From an uncultured archaeon (lineage in GTDB: Archaea; Asgardarchaeota; Thorarchaeia; Thorarchaeales; Thorarchaeaceae): 11,162 nucleotides of DNA. The notes under the pieces were generated by a model, which ran no database searches, was not told the origin of the DNA, and saw nothing but the letters and a program-made list of their open reading frames with translations. A program made the translations under genes and the position numbers. This document shows, one piece after another, positions 1-9,398 of the stretch (position 1 is the first letter of the stretch; the number at the start of each line of letters is the position of its first letter). Where the stretch lies: the NCBI GenBank assembly GCA_964631415.1, contig CAZVZC010000052.1:1-11162 (forward strand), in the 5' to 3' direction.

Positions 1-1
1 C

Positions 2-586
2 TCGTCGGTTTCTCAGATGGGGTATGTACTGTTTGCGCTAGGAGTGTTCACAACATTCGGCGTGTCAGGTGGGCTCTTCCATCTGATCAACCATGCATTC
101 TCCAAGGGTCTACTCTTCATGACGGCTGGTGTGGTGATACACCAGACAGAGCTCAGAGACATAACAAAGATGGGCGGCCTGTCCAACAAGATGCCAATCA
201 CTGCGTTCACTGCTGCGATAGGGGCGTTGAGCATAGCTGGAAGCCCTCCTCTTTCGGGATTCGCTAGTGAATGGATGATGTTTCTGGGTGGCTTCCAAGC
301 AGCCCTCCCTAGTGGAGCCGGTCTGGGTCGGCCCGAGTTCGCCGTCCTAGCTCTCTTGGCCGTCGCAAGCACAATCATCAGTGCAGGATACATGCTGAGG
401 TTCCTCTGGAAGGTCTTCTTGGGACCCACTCCTCAGGCCTTGGAAGAAGTCACCGAGGGGCCGAGGTCCATGACATACCCAATGATAGCACTCGGTGCGC
501 TGATTGTGCTGTTTGGTGTGTTTCCTGGGCTCGCCCTGACAGTCATCACGCCCATTGTCGAGGCCATCGCCAACATAATACCATGA
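2..586 (+). CDS. Antiporter-like proton-pumping subunit, NuoM-like/MrpD-type (5'-partial; extra, fourth pump subunit of the operon)
   Basis: The frame is open to the window edge (tcg tcg gtt tct cag atg = SSVSQMGY, the conserved [AY]SSxSQMGY motif). It also has NHAFSKGLLFMTAG, MGGLSNKMP and AGSPPLSGFASEW (TM12 Glu, as in NuoM). It ends after ...LFGVFP with no lateral helix, so it is not NuoL. Confidence 0.88.
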   Translation, partial: SSVSQMGYVLFALGVFTTFGVSGGLFHLINHAFSKGLLFMTAGVVIHQTELRDITKMGGLSNKMPITAFTAAIGALSIAGSPPLSGFASEWMMFLGGFQAALPSGAGLGRPEFAVLALLAVASTIISAGYMLRFLWKVFLGPTPQALEEVTEGPRSMTYPMIALGALIVLFGVFPGLALTVITPIVEAIANIIP

Positions 587-591
587 GGTGA
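585..591 (+). promoter_or_regulatory. Ribosome-binding site GAGGTGA for nuoL
   Basis: GAGGTGA ends 4 nt before ATG 596 and overlaps the upstream stop codon. Confidence 0.75.
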
Positions 592-595
592 CAAC

Positions 596-2827
596 ATGCT
601 GCTTGGACTACCCTACTATCTCATTGTCGTCATCCCACTGGTCGGTTCTCTCATTGTGCCGCTGGTCGGACGCTTCAACGAGAAGTTGCGGGACTGGACA
701 CCGGCCCTGTTCATGGGTGTAACGATGGTCCTCTGCTGGTCACTTCTGCTGGACCTTGGGAGCCCTCAGGGTCCCACGAGTTGGGTCTGGATTGAAACAC
801 TAGGTCTGCGTTTCGAAGTGCTGCTGGATCCTCTATCGGTCATCATGGCAGTCCTGTCCAGCACATTGTGTTTCCTAATCTACGTTTACAGCACTGAGTA
901 CATGGCTCACGAGGGTGACCGTGACAGGTTCTTCTTCCTGATGCTCGCGTTTGGAGGCGGCATGCTCACACTGGTCATCAGCAACAATCTGCTGATTGCT
1001 TTCATTGGATGGGAGATAATGGGCTTCTGTTCCTACGGCCTCATCGGCTTCTGGAACGACAGGAAGAATCCCCCTGAGAAGGAGCTGGATGGCAGCGAAT
1101 CCAGCAATCCCCTGCTTCAATTTGAAACGGAGGGTCAGTACAACACTCATTGCGGGACCAAGGCATTCATTGTCACAAGAGTCGGGGACGCTTTCATGCT
1201 GGGTGGAATCCTTCTGCTGTTCATGTTCACGGGTACCTTCTCCTTCTCCGAGATGGCGCAGAACGCTCAGAACTGGTGGCAGATTATGGCATCTGTGGGA
1301 TTGCTTGTCCCAACTCTTCTGTTAATCTTCATGGGGGCCATTGGCAAGTCCGGGCAGGTCCCACTTGACGTGTGGCTCCCTGAGGCGATGGCTGGACCCA
1401 CTCCGGTTTCTGCTCTCATCCACGCAGCAACGATGGTCAAAGCTGGTGTCTACATAAGTGCGAGATTCCTTGTCACTATGGCCGGCGCGGCGAGCACGGA
1501 TAACAGCGGGACTGGATGGATGCCGCTGCAACACACAGGACTCGAATTGGCCGCGCAGTTCTTCACAGTCGTCGCAGTCATCGGAGCGATTACGGCGCTT
1601 TTGACTGCCACTATGGGGATGGTTTCGAACGAGCTCAAGCAGGTTCTAGCTTTCTCTACGTTGAGTCAACTGGGCTACATGATGCTGGCCATAGGAACGG
1701 GCGGTCTTCTTGTCGAGTATGAGCCCGCGTACCTGAGCGGAATCCTACATGTGGTGAGTCACGGTGCTTTCAAGGCACTGCTCTTCTTGGCCGCAGGCGG
1801 TGTCATCCATGCCCTGCATACGAAATACATGAGCAAGATGGGCGGTCTCAAGAAGTACATGCCGAAAACGTTCATTGTGATGTGGATTGGAGTGCTCGCG
1901 CTGTCAGGCATACCTCCATTTTCGGGCTTCTGGTCAAAAGACTCCATCATTGAGTATTCGTATGAGCTGGCAATGCATCAGCCGCTAGGGGTCTTTCTCT
2001 TTGCTCTGGCCGTTCTCGCTGCAGCATGCACGATCTTCTACAGCTTGAGGCTCATGGGTATGACCTTCTATGGTCCCTATGGTGCCCAACATGTAGCTGA
2101 ACACAGTGAGCCTGCCGAGTCCTTAACCAGTGAACAGTCCGAGTCTGCTCATGATGAGGAGCATGAACACGAACACCCGCATGACCCCGGTCCTGCGATG
2201 ATGGTTCCTCTGTACATCTTAGCAGCCTTCACAGTGATAGCATTCGCAGTGTTCCCGCTGATTGAAGCAATCATTCTGAGCGAGGGTGGATTGAGTTTCG
2301 CGCTATGGGCCGAAACCCTTACTGAGATGGTCTTGGTCAAGATCACACTGCCCGGCGTCATTCCGTTCGCATTCACTTTGGGCGCTCTCGCCCTAGGTGG
2401 GATTCCGGGGTATGTGCTCTATATCAAGAGGGCAGATCGATCAAGGACTGCAGTCCCCGAAACTGGAGTCAGGAGGCGGCTGTACAGCTTCCTGAAGCAT
2501 CGGTGGTACATCAACGAATTCTACTACTGGATTGTTCGTAAGTTCATGAACTCTACAGAGTGGTGGCGCGTACGGGTGGACAACCGCATCATCGATGGGA
2601 TCGACTTCGGGTCCGCCCGGGCAGCTCTGTCAATGTCTTCGCGTGTAAGATGGTTTGATGACCATGTCATCGATGGTTTTGCTGAGAACGTGTCAACTGT
2701 CAGCGTGGCCGCATCTGAGTCGAGCCAAGCGATTCAGACAGGTCGGGTCAATGACTATGTGGCCGTCATCATCTTCGGAATAGGGATCCTGGTTATACTG
2801 ACCTTGGTGAGTTTGGGGGTGATATGA
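596..2827 (+). CDS. nuoL: NADH-quinone oxidoreductase / Fpo-like subunit L (743 aa) with extended lateral helix
   Basis: Motifs LDPLS, GWEIMG, KAFIVTRVGD, GKSGQVPLDVWLPEAMAGPTPVSALIHAATMVKAG, AFSTLSQLGYM, HGAFKALLFL, GFWSKD. The C-terminal lateral helix RWYINEFY...IDG...QTG is followed by one final TM and has no MrpB-like extension. Confidence 0.95.
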   Translation: MLLGLPYYLIVVIPLVGSLIVPLVGRFNEKLRDWTPALFMGVTMVLCWSLLLDLGSPQGPTSWVWIETLGLRFEVLLDPLSVIMAVLSSTLCFLIYVYSTEYMAHEGDRDRFFFLMLAFGGGMLTLVISNNLLIAFIGWEIMGFCSYGLIGFWNDRKNPPEKELDGSESSNPLLQFETEGQYNTHCGTKAFIVTRVGDAFMLGGILLLFMFTGTFSFSEMAQNAQNWWQIMASVGLLVPTLLLIFMGAIGKSGQVPLDVWLPEAMAGPTPVSALIHAATMVKAGVYISARFLVTMAGAASTDNSGTGWMPLQHTGLELAAQFFTVVAVIGAITALLTATMGMVSNELKQVLAFSTLSQLGYMMLAIGTGGLLVEYEPAYLSGILHVVSHGAFKALLFLAAGGVIHALHTKYMSKMGGLKKYMPKTFIVMWIGVLALSGIPPFSGFWSKDSIIEYSYELAMHQPLGVFLFALAVLAAACTIFYSLRLMGMTFYGPYGAQHVAEHSEPAESLTSEQSESAHDEEHEHEHPHDPGPAMMVPLYILAAFTVIAFAVFPLIEAIILSEGGLSFALWAETLTEMVLVKITLPGVIPFAFTLGALALGGIPGYVLYIKRADRSRTAVPETGVRRRLYSFLKHRWYINEFYYWIVRKFMNSTEWWRVRVDNRIIDGIDFGSARAALSMSSRVRWFDDHVIDGFAENVSTVSVAASESSQAIQTGRVNDYVAVIIFGIGILVILTLVSLGVI
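2579..2734 (+). repeat. Tandem 26-codon repeat in the NuoL amphipathic helix (two units, 2579-2656 and 2657-2734)
   Basis: DNRIIDG (codon 2579) and DDHVIDG (codon 2657) are 78 nt apart. The 10-mer TCATCGATGG recurs at 2589 and 2667. QTG follows exactly 26 codons after the second D. Confidence 0.8.
2815..2822 (+). promoter_or_regulatory. Ribosome-binding site GGGGGTGA for nuoM
   Basis: Ends 5 nt before GTG 2828, which directly follows the nuoL TGA (2825-2827). Confidence 0.65.
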
Positions 2828-4345
2828 GTGCAGTTCCCTATTGCGCAACAGTTCATTGACGGTCTTCCGCTTGGCATCCTGCCTCTGATGCTGGCTATCG
2901 TGCTCGGTTCTTCCGTGGTGGCGTACATCCTTGGAAAGCGAGCTGCACGAGCAGTATCCATCTTGGTCACAGCTATTGAGCTCGGGCTCTCGATTGTTCT
3001 GGCACTAGCCATTGACCCAAGCATTGAGATTTCGGATCCCAATGCCGGGATGACGTACATGTGGCAGTTCACGATGGGACGAATCACCGTGGACGAAACC
3101 GAAACCGTTCTGCAGATCCTCCTCGGTGTTGACGGCATCTCAGTCGTGATGGTTGTTCTATCCAACCTCGTTGTGTTCATTGCCGCACTGTGCTCGAATC
3201 ACATTCACAAGTCAGAGAGTCTATACTATGCGATCCTGCTACTTCTTCAGGCAGGACTCATCGGTGTCTTCGTTTCGGTCGACCTCATCGGCTTCTTCGT
3301 GTTCTGGGAGTCTGTCTTGATTCCCATGTTTTTCATCATTGGCCGGTGGGGCGAAGAAGGATGCCAGCATGCAGCCGTCAAGTTCCTCATTTACACTCAG
3401 CTAGGATCCGCAATCTTGCTGATCGGCATCTTCATACTGTATTTTGCCTCCGCACCGCACACATTCAACATGCTGGCTTTGCGGAGCGCTGGACTGCCCG
3501 TCAATGCTCAAATCGCCTTTGCTCTCACGGTCTTCGTGGGTGCAGGTGTCAAGCTACCCGTGTGGCCGTTGCACAACTGGCTCCCGTGGGCTCACGTTAA
3601 GGCACCCACGCCCGGGTCTGTCATCCTAGCAGGTATCCTCCTGAAGATGGGCGGCTACGGTTTCTTGCGGCTGGGTGTGTGGATGATCCCCGAAGGGTTT
3701 GCCCGGATTAGCATCCCCTTAGCTGCCCTCGCGGTTTTCACATGCATCTACGCTGCGCTGACTGCAATGGCTCAGACAGACCTCAAGAGCATGGTGGCCT
3801 ACACGTCGATCAATCACATGGCTTGGATTCTGCTGGCCGTCGCAGTTGGGACAAGTGTCGCGCTGCAAGGAGCGGTCTTCATGATGTTCTCGCACGGTGT
3901 GATAATATCTGTCATGTTCATTGTTGCGGGTCAGCTGAAGTACTCGGCGGGATCCAGAGAGATTCCGATGGTGCGAGGTCTCATGGCTGGTGCCCCCAGA
4001 TTGTCATCCGTGCTCATACTGGCATCTCTGGCAACGTTCGGTCTTCCGGGTTTCAGCGGTTTCATAGCTGAGGTACTGATTCTCTTTGGCTCGGTCAGAG
4101 TCTACATCTGGACTGCACTCATCACATTTGGTGTCTTCATCACGGTCGGCTATCTCCTATGGACACTCAACAGAATCGTGTTCAGTGACCCTGACCCCGA
4201 GAAGAAGGTCAGTGAAGCCCCATGGAGTGATCTTGTGGCTCCAGTCCTGATGCTTGTTCCTGTGGTATTGCTGGGCCTCTTGCCTGATCTGATCCTCAGC
4301 CTTGTGAAGCCGGTTGCCCTGTTCATAGTGGGAGGTGGTCCGTGA
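2828..4345 (+). CDS. nuoM: NADH-quinone oxidoreductase / Fpo-like subunit M (505 aa), canonical type
   Basis: Motifs LGVDGIS, DLIGFFVFWESVLIPMFFIIGRWG, VKLPVWPLHNWLPWAHVKAPTPGSVILAGILLKMGGYG, AYTSINHM, FSHG and GLPGFSGFIAE. All the conserved charged residues I can recognise are present. Confidence 0.95.
   Translation: MQFPIAQQFIDGLPLGILPLMLAIVLGSSVVAYILGKRAARAVSILVTAIELGLSIVLALAIDPSIEISDPNAGMTYMWQFTMGRITVDETETVLQILLGVDGISVVMVVLSNLVVFIAALCSNHIHKSESLYYAILLLLQAGLIGVFVSVDLIGFFVFWESVLIPMFFIIGRWGEEGCQHAAVKFLIYTQLGSAILLIGIFILYFASAPHTFNMLALRSAGLPVNAQIAFALTVFVGAGVKLPVWPLHNWLPWAHVKAPTPGSVILAGILLKMGGYGFLRLGVWMIPEGFARISIPLAALAVFTCIYAALTAMAQTDLKSMVAYTSINHMAWILLAVAVGTSVALQGAVFMMFSHGVIISVMFIVAGQLKYSAGSREIPMVRGLMAGAPRLSSVLILASLATFGLPGFSGFIAEVLILFGSVRVYIWTALITFGVFITVGYLLWTLNRIVFSDPDPEKKVSEAPWSDLVAPVLMLVPVVLLGLLPDLILSLVKPVALFIVGGGP
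4331..4337 (+). promoter_or_regulatory. Ribosome-binding site GGAGGTG for nuoN
   Basis: Precedes GTG 4342, which overlaps the nuoM stop (GTGA). An alternative ATG lies at 4348. Confidence 0.7.
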
Positions 4346-5847
4346 AGATGCTGCAGTTGGCTCCTTTCGCCGAATTCATCAGAATGCTCTTCAAGCCCCT
4401 TACAGACCTGCTCATGCAGTATGTACCTCTGGAGTGGGTAGGGTCTCTCCCTGCACTCACTCTCGTCGTTTTCTCGGTCCTCGCGCTAATCATTGGGATG
4501 CGCTACAATCCATTGTTGGTCAGCTTTGTGGGGGTGACCATTGCGACGGTCGAGATGATCGTCATCGACCCCACATCATCCTTCGGCGGTCTGTTCGTGA
4601 GAAACGCGTTCTCGGACTTCTTCATCTACATAATTCTCATAGTCGGCTTTCTCGTGCTGATGTCTTCCACACTGTGGGCTGGCGAGCGCGGAACGTACAA
4701 CTTCCTTCTACTGGTATCCTTCGCTGGTGCCATATGGGTCGTCATGGCAACCGACCTTGTCGCGCTGTTCATCTCTTGGGAAGTGATGTCCACTCCAACC
4801 TATGTACTTGCAGCGCTCGGTCCCAACCGCGGTGCTGTGGATGGTGCGACGAAGTACTTCGTCATGGGACTACTTGCCACCATGTTGATGATATTTGGGA
4901 TTGCTCTGGTCTATGGTGTGACAGGCGAAACCGACCTCTCCGCGGTGGCCACGGTTGTCGAGTCTGTCTGGGTTTCGGGGCCCAGTGCGTCGCCTGCGGC
5001 CTACACTCTCATGCTGGCAATGATCCTGTTCGTGTTCTCCTTTGGCTTCAAGGTTGGCATATTTCCCGGATGGATGTGGGTCCCTGACACCTACTCAACG
5101 GCCGATGGGAGCGTCACCTCCTATCTGGCTGGTGCCACAAAGAAGGCTGGAGTCAGTGCGCTCATACGGATCCTCATGGTCGCATTCATAGTGGCCAGGC
5201 TGGAGTGGGGTTTTCTGATCGCCATTGTTTCAGCCCTGACCATGTTGATAGGAAACGTGCTGGCGCTAGCTCAGCGGAACATCATGCGTATGCTGGCTTA
5301 CTCAAGCATAGCCATGATGGGGTATCTGCTGATGGGAATCGCTGCTGGTACACAGTTCGGAGCGGCTGCAGCGATGTTCCATGCATTCACTCATGCTCTC
5401 ATGAAGTCTGCAGCCTTCATTCTGATATGGGCCATTTCAGTCCGAATGGCCAAGGAAATCACATATGACGATTTAGCAGGACTGAGTCAGAGGGCGCCAT
5501 TCGCATCGGCGATGTTGGGTATACTCGTCACGGCCCTGATGGCAGTGCCTATTCCTCCGACCGTGACATTCTGGTCCAAATTGTTCCTCTTTCAGAGCGC
5601 ATGGGACGTCGGACTGTGGTGGCTTGTCCTCTTCGGGCTCATGAACACGGTTCTCTCATGGGGGTACTATGTCAGAGTCTTGAAGTACTGCTACATGGTC
5701 GAGCCGAAGGATACCACGAAGCTGGTTCTCGCAAGGACTCCCATGCTTGCTGTGGCACTCTGTGTGGCTTCCATAATGTTGCTCTTCTTCAACTCGGATG
5801 TCATATTCCAATATGCGTTCGAGGCGGCCACGGGGATCATCCCATGA
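4342..5847 (+). CDS. nuoN: NADH-quinone oxidoreductase / Fpo-like subunit N (501 aa)
   Basis: Motifs DLVALFISWEVMSTPTYVLA, GATKYFVMG, FKVGIFPGWMWVPDTY, TKKAG, MRMLAYSSIAMMGY, PPTVTFWSK and GYYVRV. The exact start is uncertain (4342, 4348 or later). Confidence 0.93.
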   Translation: MKMLQLAPFAEFIRMLFKPLTDLLMQYVPLEWVGSLPALTLVVFSVLALIIGMRYNPLLVSFVGVTIATVEMIVIDPTSSFGGLFVRNAFSDFFIYIILIVGFLVLMSSTLWAGERGTYNFLLLVSFAGAIWVVMATDLVALFISWEVMSTPTYVLAALGPNRGAVDGATKYFVMGLLATMLMIFGIALVYGVTGETDLSAVATVVESVWVSGPSASPAAYTLMLAMILFVFSFGFKVGIFPGWMWVPDTYSTADGSVTSYLAGATKKAGVSALIRILMVAFIVARLEWGFLIAIVSALTMLIGNVLALAQRNIMRMLAYSSIAMMGYLLMGIAAGTQFGAAAAMFHAFTHALMKSAAFILIWAISVRMAKEITYDDLAGLSQRAPFASAMLGILVTALMAVPIPPTVTFWSKLFLFQSAWDVGLWWLVLFGLMNTVLSWGYYVRVLKYCYMVEPKDTTKLVLARTPMLAVALCVASIMLLFFNSDVIFQYAFEAATGIIP

Positions 5848-6331: not shown

Positions 6332-7603
6332 ATGAGGACATATGGACCGGGAGTATGCTTTCTGCTGGTGTGTCTACTTGTACCGATGAGTGCGTGCGGT
6401 GTAGGTTTTGCGGCTGCTGCAGATGAATCCACACGCGCCATCGTTGAGATCCAAGGTCATAGAATCGACTCTGTGACAATGACATGTGCCAACGATGTGA
6501 CAGGCGAAGTCACTCTCAAACCAACGGCCGAGCACACTCTGGATGTCAGTGTAGTATTTCAGACCAGTAGCGGGATTGCTGAGAAGCATGTTTGTGGTGT
6601 ATCGCCAATAAGGGAAACCACCAAGTCCGACGAAGGTCTTGAATTCGTCAAGATTGATGTGAGCTCATACCGAGACGGGTTATTCGTTGACATCCGGCTG
6701 CTTGCGAACGGATCGGCCATGGTTTATGTCGCTGCTGACATCGATGATACTCAATACTCTGCGCTTGGTCTTCTCAGTAGGCCATTGACTGTGCCTGCTG
6801 TAGAAACCAGACTGGAGGATGTCAAAGATGCCTTGGCCATCAGGCTCCTCAAAGAGGAACGTGTTCCGTCAACGTCAGCAGTGGTGATTTACAATGACAG
6901 ACAGAAACCATTACCGAATGGCCCCAGCTGTTATGACCCACTATACGTGCCGAGCGGTCCTAGGGTGTACTGCTTAGTGCATGAAGTGTTCTTTGACGAT
7001 AACAACAGCGTACCAGAGCAAGTTGGCGCTTGGTGTGTTAGCTACAGCTGGGTGGACTACTCTGTCTACCGCGAAGATGTGTCAGAGGCCCAGATAAAGA
7101 GCGACCTCCAGTTCTACAACAAAAAGCACTACACGATTGACACACGATCAAGGATAGTGGGTGCCTATGAGATTGACATACACGGTGATGTTGATACAGA
7201 TGAACCAGATCGCCCTCTTATGACATTTGACGGCGGCTGGCTCTATCCGTCAGAGGTCGAGAGCCTGTGGGGGCCCTATTCCCAAGACTACTACATCAGG
7301 CCGGACAATACAATAATGCTCGCATCAGCCTGTCAGAGCCTCTGGAACTCCGGTGAAACGAGCGGTTCTGAGATGGGCGATGTGTTCATCAACTACGGCG
7401 CAACAGCATACGTTGGTTCAACTGTGAATCTGCCAATAGTCATGGATGACTGGACCGAGGAGTTCTGGTGGTCGTTGAGCTATCAGGACCAGACGATCTC
7501 TGATGCCATATCAGACGCGAACCTAGCAATGGGGTGGGCACGGACGTCAACGTACATCCAGGTATACCTTTCAAGCTATGGCACTAGGAGGCTACCCAAC
7601 TGA
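6332..7603 (+). CDS. Secreted protein with C-terminal caspase-hemoglobinase-fold (clan CD; CHAT/C25-like) cysteine peptidase domain (423 aa)
   Basis: Hydrophobic N-terminal signal ending ...GFAAAA. EIDIHGD gives His284-Gly285 and IMLASACQS gives Cys334. These are followed by MGDVFINYGATAYVGS and WTEEFWWSL...TISDAISDAN, the typical post-catalytic pattern of CHAT/gingipain-like domains. Confidence 0.78.
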   Translation: MRTYGPGVCFLLVCLLVPMSACGVGFAAAADESTRAIVEIQGHRIDSVTMTCANDVTGEVTLKPTAEHTLDVSVVFQTSSGIAEKHVCGVSPIRETTKSDEGLEFVKIDVSSYRDGLFVDIRLLANGSAMVYVAADIDDTQYSALGLLSRPLTVPAVETRLEDVKDALAIRLLKEERVPSTSAVVIYNDRQKPLPNGPSCYDPLYVPSGPRVYCLVHEVFFDDNNSVPEQVGAWCVSYSWVDYSVYREDVSEAQIKSDLQFYNKKHYTIDTRSRIVGAYEIDIHGDVDTDEPDRPLMTFDGGWLYPSEVESLWGPYSQDYYIRPDNTIMLASACQSLWNSGETSGSEMGDVFINYGATAYVGSTVNLPIVMDDWTEEFWWSLSYQDQTISDAISDANLAMGWARTSTYIQVYLSSYGTRRLPN

Positions 7604-7608
7604 AGACG

Positions 7609-8172
7609 GTGCACCTCATCGCAGCAGTAATCACATACATCTTGTTACTTGGGTGTACTTCTCAGGCGGTGGCAGCGAGCTCTGATTCCTCAACATTCTC
7701 TGATGAAGCAGCAATCCTTAGCCTGGGCGCTCCTGAGTCGTTCTCCATGACTGAAGGCTTTGTGGTCACGATAGCTGTCGTCGTCACAAACACTGGACTC
7801 AGCATGCTGAATGTGACTGTGGTAGTGGAACAGGATCGCTCTCCTCATGAGATAGTTCTGGCCGAACCTGCTCCTGTCAAGCCCGTCGATGCAGGCTCTG
7901 AGGCGGAGCTGATGCTCAGATTCAGGGCAGTCGTGGAGGACTCTCTGTTGAACAGCTCACTCCTGACGACTCATGTATCGACTGCCATCTTCCTCAGGGC
8001 AGTTTCGATTGACTTCTTGGCTGCCTCACCACAGAAGACCGTGATTGTTGACATAAGTGTCGTAAGAGCTTCTCAGCTCGTCGTTGGCGGTTTCGTCCTT
8101 GCTGTCGCAGCCATACTGATAGCTGTTATCGCTCGCAGTCGAGTAGGATGGATAGGCCTGCACAAGAAGTAA
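7609..8172 (+). CDS. Type I membrane-anchored surface protein with Ig-like (CARDB-like) domain (187 aa)
   Basis: GTG starts 5 nt after the protease stop. It has an N-terminal hydrophobic signal (LLLGC / AVA-A), a beta-rich core with VVVTNTG...LNVTV, and a C-terminal TM LVVGGFVLAVAAILIAVIA followed by a basic tail RSR...KK. Confidence 0.7.
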   Translation: MHLIAAVITYILLLGCTSQAVAASSDSSTFSDEAAILSLGAPESFSMTEGFVVTIAVVVTNTGLSMLNVTVVVEQDRSPHEIVLAEPAPVKPVDAGSEAELMLRFRAVVEDSLLNSSLLTTHVSTAIFLRAVSIDFLAASPQKTVIVDISVVRASQLVVGGFVLAVAAILIAVIARSRVGWIGLHKK

Positions 8173-8951: not shown

Positions 8952-9398
8952 ATGAGTTTTCTTGGCAAGCTTAAGGCCCCGAACGCGACGATAGCAGTGC
9001 TGCTTGACAAGGGTACGTCTAGCCTCAAAGAGCCGCTTCAAGGCAAGCTCGACGTTTCCTCGTCAGAGGAATTCGACGCCACTGAACTGCGTATTGAGAT
9101 TTGGGTCAACGAATGGACGAAAGCCACTGAACAAAAAAAGGTTGGACAGCAGACAGTCCCCGTAACCGCCGAACAAAAAAGCGTGCTGCACCAGAGTAAG
9201 AATACAGTAGCAGGAGGACGGCACTTCACGAGCGGCTTCAGGGATAGCATTCCCTTCAGCATCTCCTTACCGTCGAACGTGCCCCCGACCTATCACAGCC
9301 AGAACGCCCGCAACACTTGGATGTTGAAAGGCGTGATTGGCGTCAAAGGTCGGCCCGACGTGACCAGCCACGACATGGAAGTCGTCATCACCTACTAA
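8952..9398 (+). CDS. Single-domain arrestin N-domain / SpoOM-like protein (148 aa)
   Basis: The pattern IAVLLDK...EPLQGKLDVSSSEEFDATELRIEIWVNE...PFSISLPSNVPPTYHSQNARNTWMLKGVIGVKGRPD resembles the arrestin_N/SpoOM beta-sandwich consensus (F.F.LP..LPPS....G.I.Y.LKA). No signal peptide or TM; good RBS. Confidence 0.8.
   Translation: MSFLGKLKAPNATIAVLLDKGTSSLKEPLQGKLDVSSSEEFDATELRIEIWVNEWTKATEQKKVGQQTVPVTAEQKSVLHQSKNTVAGGRHFTSGFRDSIPFSISLPSNVPPTYHSQNARNTWMLKGVIGVKGRPDVTSHDMEVVITY

Follow-up and report, generated by a model that had tools for sequence, protein, structure and literature searches.

In solved complex I, the lateral helix of NuoL straps the pump modules of the membrane arm together. 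The '2M' form of complex I was reportedly described by Chadwick, Hemp, Fischer and Orphan in 2018 (ISME J 12:2668). As outlined in passages of later papers (PMC9040806, PMC7117926, PMC7300363), this form has a fourth NuoM-family antiporter-like subunit encoded in the nuo operon, a NuoL helix lengthened by about 26 inserted residues, and a proposed extra ion moved per turnover. Archaeal '2M' examples without NuoEFG have been reported, e.g. in heterotrophic marine Thaumarchaeota (PMC7300363), and a respiratory survey of Asgard archaea (bioRxiv 10.1101/2024.07.04.601786) treats shorter, not longer, membrane arms. The subject of this work is a row of antiporter-like genes in a DNA stretch of 11,162 nt (hereafter the window), the complete contig CAZVZC010000052.1 (C52) of an uncultured archaeon of the Thorarchaeaceae (assembly GCA_964631415.1), whose genome of 2.16 Mb is distributed over 81 contigs and is 85% complete. 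We propose, with a probability of roughly 0.7, that the window carries the distal end of a nuoA-J-K-C-D-H-I-M'-L-M-N operon encoding a complex I relative of the 11-subunit type, the arm of which most likely contains four pump modules (M', L, M and N), and the head of which is neither a hydrogenase nor linked to NADH or F420 and takes its NuoB from a fusion with a flavin adenine dinucleotide (FAD) protein. A literature search on Thorarchaeota and Asgard NuoM found no description of this operon, the work of Chadwick et al. being known to us through citing papers only.

The operon and its four antiporter-like subunits

All four consecutive antiporter-like open reading frames (ORFs) of the window lie on the plus strand and match PF00361 (E 4e-25 to 3e-66). 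The first, M', is open at its 5' end (positions 2-586) and encodes the C-terminal 194 residues (312-505 of 505) of its product, with a PF00361 E-value of 4e-25. It is followed by nuoL (596-2827, 743 aa; TIGR01974 482 bits with a cut-off of 407.5; PF00662 and PF00361), by nuoM of the canonical type (2828-4345, 505 aa; TIGR01972 415 bits), and by nuoN (4342-5847, 501 aa), the last gene of the operon, for which the best family is TIGR01770 at 270 bits, under the curated 332.6-bit cut-off; Thorarchaeota NuoN groups with bacterial NuoN in a tree of antiporter-like proteins. In a preliminary description made from the letters of the window, the successive genes were said to be 9 nt apart, directly adjacent (0 nt) and overlapping by 4 nt, and the ORF coordinates reproduce these values exactly. 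The ribosome-binding sites assigned there to the three complete genes correspond to Shine-Dalgarno-like sequences 4-6 nt 5' of the start codons, i.e. GAGGTGA at 585-591 (+) for nuoL, which overlaps the M' stop codon (584-586), GGGGGTGA at 2815-2822 (+) for nuoM, and GGGAGGTGG at 4330-4338 (+) for nuoN. The charged motifs, described as intact in the three complete genes, were found in these: all four proteins have the Glu of transmembrane helix 5 (TM5), the Lys of TM7 and the Lys (L, N) or Glu (M, M') of TM12, and L, M and N also have the TM8 Lys, for which M' has a Glu. The TM5/TM7/TM8/TM12 pattern is E-K-K-K for both L and N, E-K-K-E for M, and E-K-E-E for M'.

The truncated M' is completed by contig C71, whose final 28 bases are identical to window positions 1-28 and in frame. 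C71 contains the C-terminal part of nuoJ, then nuoK, nuoC, nuoD, nuoH and nuoI, and the first 320 residues of M' (C71:4013-4972); M' begins with a GTG, in a 4-nt overlap with the stop codon of nuoI. In reverse orientation, contig C67 supplies nuoA and the N-terminal part of nuoJ, and its overlap of about 66 codons with C71 contains three amino-acid differences, which indicates that the contig breaks reflect strain variation. Joining C67, C71 and C52 gives the operon nuoA-J-K-C-D-H-I-M'-L-M-N. The upstream genes, which lay beyond the reach of the preliminary description, are therefore nuoA-J-K-C-D-H-I from two further contigs, with M' between nuoI and nuoL. That description had also considered that the gene 5' of nuoL might belong to a separate Mrp or hydrogenase operon; M' is in the same operon as nuoL, and the NuoL helix is longer by 26 residues. 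The MrpG and MrpE families (PF03334 and PF01899) were not found in the genome, 85% complete as it is, MrpF not having been searched. A separate Mrp operon is ruled out by the position of M' between nuoI and nuoL and by this absence of MrpE and MrpG.

We place all four pumps in one complex because M' is coupled on both sides, the genome's only four PF00361 genes found all lie within this operon, the NuoL helix is longer, and protonatable residues occupy every key position of M'. The lateral (HL) strap helix of NuoL (residues 637-716, window 2504-2743, +) comprises 80 residues between its WYINEFY and QTG anchors. From anchor to anchor (WY[IF][ND]E to QTG), 28 of 28 Thorarchaeota NuoL proteins have a span of 80-81 residues; in three-pump comparators it is 54 (the solved cyanobacterial NdhF1, 6hum_F), 56 (a Rickettsiales NuoL) and 55 (L of three-antiporter clusters in Jord/Freyarchaeia), and two genera of the same class whose clusters hold three antiporter-like genes likewise have an L with a span of 54. 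Two D-x-x-[IV]-[IV]-D-G units are found 26 residues apart in the helix (D662/D688, DG 667-668/693-694), the best internal repeat offset of the helix is exactly 26 residues, and two successive helix stretches align in HMMER to one and the same stretch of NdhF1. A 26-residue insertion in the NuoL lateral helix is the reported hallmark of '2M' complex I (PMC9040806). By our estimate, such an extension would add about 39 Å of helix, roughly the width of one module. Every measured NuoL following an M' carries the extension, and every measured NuoL of a three-antiporter cluster is without it.

When NuoL relatives were sought in contigs of one genome per species, they were found in Thorarchaeota (Asgard) metagenome-assembled genomes at 64-93% identity and then in Jord-/Freyarchaeia at about 35%. 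A survey of related genomes for the same gene order, as suggested in the preliminary description, recovered this order in every related Thorarchaeota locus with enough flanking sequence (about 40 species), with M' always directly 5' of nuoL. Within the class, orthologues of M' (E < 1e-100) are present in 55 of 87 species genomes and in 13 of 17 genera. In place of the four-pump operon, the remaining four genera have a Jordarchaeia-like cluster with two or three antiporter-like genes and a short NuoL helix (L059-L061; G082, G077, G076).

M' is 30% identical to M and 29% identical to both L and N. On TIGR01972 it scores 300.1 bits (cut-off 263.8) when represented by the near-identical full-length database protein P0001, the next models being those of Mbx/Mbs-type, HyfB and MrpA subunits at 287, 276 and 271 bits, and its best solved relatives are MrpA (7qru_A), MbsH' (6u8y_X) and MbhH (6cfw_H). 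A FastTree phylogeny of 91 antiporter-like proteins places Thorarchaeota M with bacterial NuoM (100% support), and M' in a separate clade together with M-like metagenomic proteins and one Jordarchaeia subunit. The approximately unbiased (AU) test in IQ-TREE rejects a clade of Thorarchaeota M and M' (delta lnL 102, p = 8e-8), a grouping that was chosen after the first tree had been viewed. The identity of 30%, the tree placement and the AU result together rule out M' as a recent duplicate of nuoM. The nearest relatives of M' beyond Thorarchaeota (41-49% identity) are encoded directly 3' of a nuoL-like gene. Its TM8 Glu is invariant in eight aligned Thorarchaeota M' proteins and recurs in the closest relatives; across the M'-like clade, 30 of 51 aligned rows (4 references and 47 database representatives) have E, G, S, A, N, D or V in place of the central TM8 Lys, which canonical NuoM keeps. 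Also among the best M' relatives are proteins of about 1250-1330 aa (P0122-P0129, P0134), most with two to four matched stretches, which may combine several antiporter-like modules in a fused chain. The earlier assignment to four-antiporter operons of the '2M' kind agrees with the architecture on every test run, but M' is not simply a second NuoM, as it belongs to another M-like clade and has Glu in TM8.

Among other explanations, the one that survives best is that M' is an alternative subunit which replaces NuoM (or N) under some conditions, leaving three pumps per complex and a longer helix that serves another purpose, such as a surplus strap or the binding of a non-pump partner. Although NCBIfam places both M' and M in the NuoM family, M' is translationally coupled within the operon (4-nt overlap with nuoI, 9 nt to nuoL), which argues for co-expression and not alternation, and the helix extension, which goes with M' as described above, has exactly the length of one 26-residue module; we consider such an exchange quite unlikely. 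It is even less probable that M' shares the operon but acts apart from the complex, as a cation/proton antiporter of its own or of an Mrp-like kind. Such a role would suit its best solved-structure matches, which are MrpA, MbsH' and MbhH and not NuoM, but it does not fit the NuoM-type TM12 Glu of M' or the lack of an MrpE/MrpG family and of any further PF00361 gene among those found in the genome, it leaves the helix extension unexplained, and single antiporter-like subunits are not known to work alone. Finally, that the four-gene row is an artefact in which a chimeric contig end joined an M' fragment to nuoL is practically excluded: since the break falls within the most conserved motif of the antiporter-like family and the overlap is just 28 bases, the junction was checked independently, and an assembly chimera is ruled out by P0001 (505 aa, 97% identical, on a 609-kb contig), which aligns gap-free across the C71/C52 junction, and by M' lying directly 5' of nuoL in about 40 independent assemblies.

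The redox head and neighbouring genes

In Nqo4 of Thermus thermophilus, His38 and Tyr87 are ligands of the quinone head group. NuoD of the Thorarchaeota operon keeps the His38 equivalent (H22), and Tyr87 aligns to Met70 in a conserved motif, ERLCML; among 25 Thorarchaeota NuoD proteins, this position is occupied by Met (24) or Leu (1) and never by Tyr. The NiFe-binding CxxC cysteine pairs, pointed to in the preliminary description as a diagnostic of the D subunit, are absent: one N-terminal Cys of four is left, and the C-terminus reads DPYPGWWDR without Cys. NuoD is therefore not a hydrogenase subunit and its quinone site is not canonical, and a group 4 hydrogenase is ruled out by the missing cysteine pairs. 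The best solved match of NuoD is MbsL of the Pyrococcus sulfane reductase (191 bits). Neither NuoF (PF01512) nor FrhB/FpoF (PF04432) gave a match in the genome (85% complete), NuoE/F/G are not encoded in the operon, and the FpoD, FpoH, FpoK and FpoL models score far under their cut-offs. The choice between Nuo/Fpo and hydrogenase coupling, left undecided before, can now be answered in that no NiFe site and no NuoF or FpoF were found, but the head is an atypical one.

The operon has no nuoB, and three PF01058 genes are present in the genome. Two of them adjoin NiFe large subunits and encode small subunits of cytoplasmic NiFe hydrogenases; the third encodes the C-terminal NuoB domain of a 616-aa protein, the first 420 residues of which form an FAD-linked oxidase that most resembles LctD, D-lactate dehydrogenase and glycolate oxidase. 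The NuoB domain of this fusion contains the cluster N2 ligands (CC, C and CP) and matches Nqo6 best (151 bits, versus 109 for MbsJ and 98 for MbhJ). In relatives, the FAD-NuoB fusion gene and nuoA share a strand, the fusion gene being 1-1.8 kb upstream and separated from nuoA by one small uncharacterised gene. In the present genome it is found at 10054-11876 (+) of locus L064 (C20:14000-31000), where it and a gene for a 154-aa protein are followed by ATP-binding cassette (ABC) transporter genes instead of nuoA; the difference between C20 and C67 is a local rearrangement or insertion. Two relatives (L065 15236-17190 and L039 456-2299) have the fusion in two overlapping frames, the split near residue 400 being possibly a frameshift or sequencing error, and a stand-alone NuoB is encoded in L060, a Jordarchaeia-like cluster of the same class. 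A survey of archaeal fusions (PMC11237513) contains no mention of an FAD-NuoB fusion.

Divergently oriented next to the fusion gene is a gene (L064 8490-9716, -) for a 407-aa HdrD/GlcF-like protein with two CCG domains and a 4Fe-4S dicluster/ferredoxin domain. The same divergent pair of genes recurs in two relatives of different genera (G010 and G024), and the HdrD/GlcF-like protein may belong to the module through which electrons enter the complex. Upstream of it (L064 3995-8481) are a geranylgeranyl-reductase-like gene and genes for a polyprenyl synthase, a DoxD/DoxX-like membrane protein and a UbiA prenyltransferase; the same group is present in the same-genus relative G024 and not in G010. 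The prenyl genes near the fusion hint at a possible gene cluster for making a prenylated redox carrier of the membrane. The MqnA/D family of the futalosine pathway was not found in the genome, the classical men pathway not having been searched.

Several points weigh against a four-pump complex with such a head. The pumping competence of M' is assumed, given the change of the central TM8 Lys to Glu. The AlphaFold2 model of NuoL (32-sequence alignment) has a mean predicted local distance difference test (pLDDT) score of 69 and falls below 50 over residues 662-724, which makes the helix geometry unusable, and none was taken from it. The correlation between extension and M' is probably based on one evolutionary origin, the fusion gene is unlinked to the operon in this genome, and the absences are provisional in a genome of this completeness.

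At the 3' side of nuoN there is a non-coding gap of 485 nt. The two ORFs directly 3' of the operon (423 and 187 aa, window 6332-8172, +) match no family, are without homologues in the related loci, and look lineage-specific. An ORF of 148 aa (8952-9398, +) shows weak matches to Arrestin_N (E 0.0014) and Spo0M (E 0.0035), both under the cut-off, and is kept at 71-81% in two close relatives; the two 148-aa ORFs at 8952 and 9551 are not paralogues. No Rfam RNA family matched anywhere in the window.

Proposed working of the complex and its significance

In the complex that we propose, the NuoL helix, longer by one 26-residue module, would hold four modules in one arm, and each module, if it works like those of solved complex I, would move one ion per two electrons; about five ions might be moved per turnover instead of four, or that many might be needed in reverse. 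NuoC, NuoD and NuoI would be provided by the operon, and the N2-cluster subunit NuoB by the C-terminal domain of the GlcD/D-lactate-dehydrogenase-like FAD protein. Because the head is neither a hydrogenase nor NADH/F420-linked and NuoB is fused to a flavoprotein, electrons probably enter from ferredoxin at NuoI and/or via the fused flavoprotein and its HdrD/GlcF-like neighbour. The acceptor might be a prenylated membrane carrier or something else. With textbook potentials, electron transfer from ferredoxin (about -450 mV) to a quinone at -74 mV yields about 73 kJ per two electrons, which makes a four-pump turnover of about five ions plausible with ferredoxin as the donor. Lactate oxidation alone (about 22 kJ) is not plausible as the sole driver, and for this reason the flavoprotein would either provide a second input of low energy or belong to a reverse or confurcating mode.

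A wider reading, which we offer tentatively and regard as unlikely, is that this is a new class of energy-converting complex and not the usual quinone reductase, in which the flavoprotein-NuoB fusion and the HdrD/GlcF-like neighbour replace the NADH module and couple 2-hydroxyacid/ferredoxin (or heterodisulfide-type) redox reactions to the four-pump arm. If this were true, energy would be conserved from ferredoxin oxidation, or the ion gradient would be used to raise electrons of a weak donor to the level of ferredoxin.

How Asgard archaea conserve energy bears on models of eukaryote origin, since no closer relatives of eukaryotes are known. If Thorarchaeota share, across the class, a complex I relative that has an additional pump and a flavoprotein-fused NuoB, lacks an NADH module and has an altered quinone site, their bioenergetics would be more elaborate than the usual fermentative picture, and another independent origin of the four-pump design would be added. 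Since three-pump, short-helix relatives exist in the same class as a natural control, the proposed equivalence of one 26-residue module with one pump is directly testable.

Comparison with known complexes

The Thorarchaeota operon resembles '2M' complex I in both sequence-level features, with L, two M-family subunits and N encoded in one nuo operon, and a NuoL helix of 80-81 residues versus 54-56. It differs in gene order, in the origin of the extra subunit and in the head. In Chloroflexi the order is nuoL-M1-M2-N with the extra gene by nuoM (PMC7117926), whereas the Thorarchaeota extra gene is found between nuoI and nuoL, and J and K are placed ahead of C. M' is no duplicate of the resident NuoM (AU p = 8e-8) and has Glu for the TM8 Lys, the gene for NuoB is not in the row and is fused to that of an FAD oxidase, and NuoD has no Tyr87 equivalent. 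More than three pump modules with matching helix insertions are also found in Complex_I_3 of 'Ca. Manganitrophaceae' and in the 'green' complex I of rhizobia, but these are bacterial and have MrpD-like subunits replacing NuoL or five pumps (PMC9040806).

Cyanobacterial NDH-1 (6hum) and Fpo-like complexes without FpoF share with the Thorarchaeota complex a core of NuoA, C, D, H, I, J, K, L, M and N without NuoEFG, and, as in those eleven-subunit ferredoxin-dependent relatives, NuoI is a plausible entry point for ferredoxin. The differences from them are the four pumps, the flavoprotein-fused NuoB and the missing quinone Tyr, with no FpoF found. Compared with canonical Nuo-14, the Thorarchaeota complex is without NuoE/F/G in the operon and without Tyr87. 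In the membrane-bound sulfane reductase (MBS) of Pyrococcus furiosus (6u8y), MbsL likewise has just the first of the NiFe-motif cysteines and no Tyr, and M' scores MbsH' of MBS and MbhH of the membrane-bound hydrogenase (MBH, 6cfw) above E. coli NuoM; however, the Thorarchaeota arm is of the complex I type (NuoA, J, K, H and a NuoL with lateral helix), and no Mrp-type small subunits were found (MrpE and MrpG searched). The four-pump design is already known from other microbes; in Thorarchaeota, the additional pump is of separate origin and the redox head is an unusual one.

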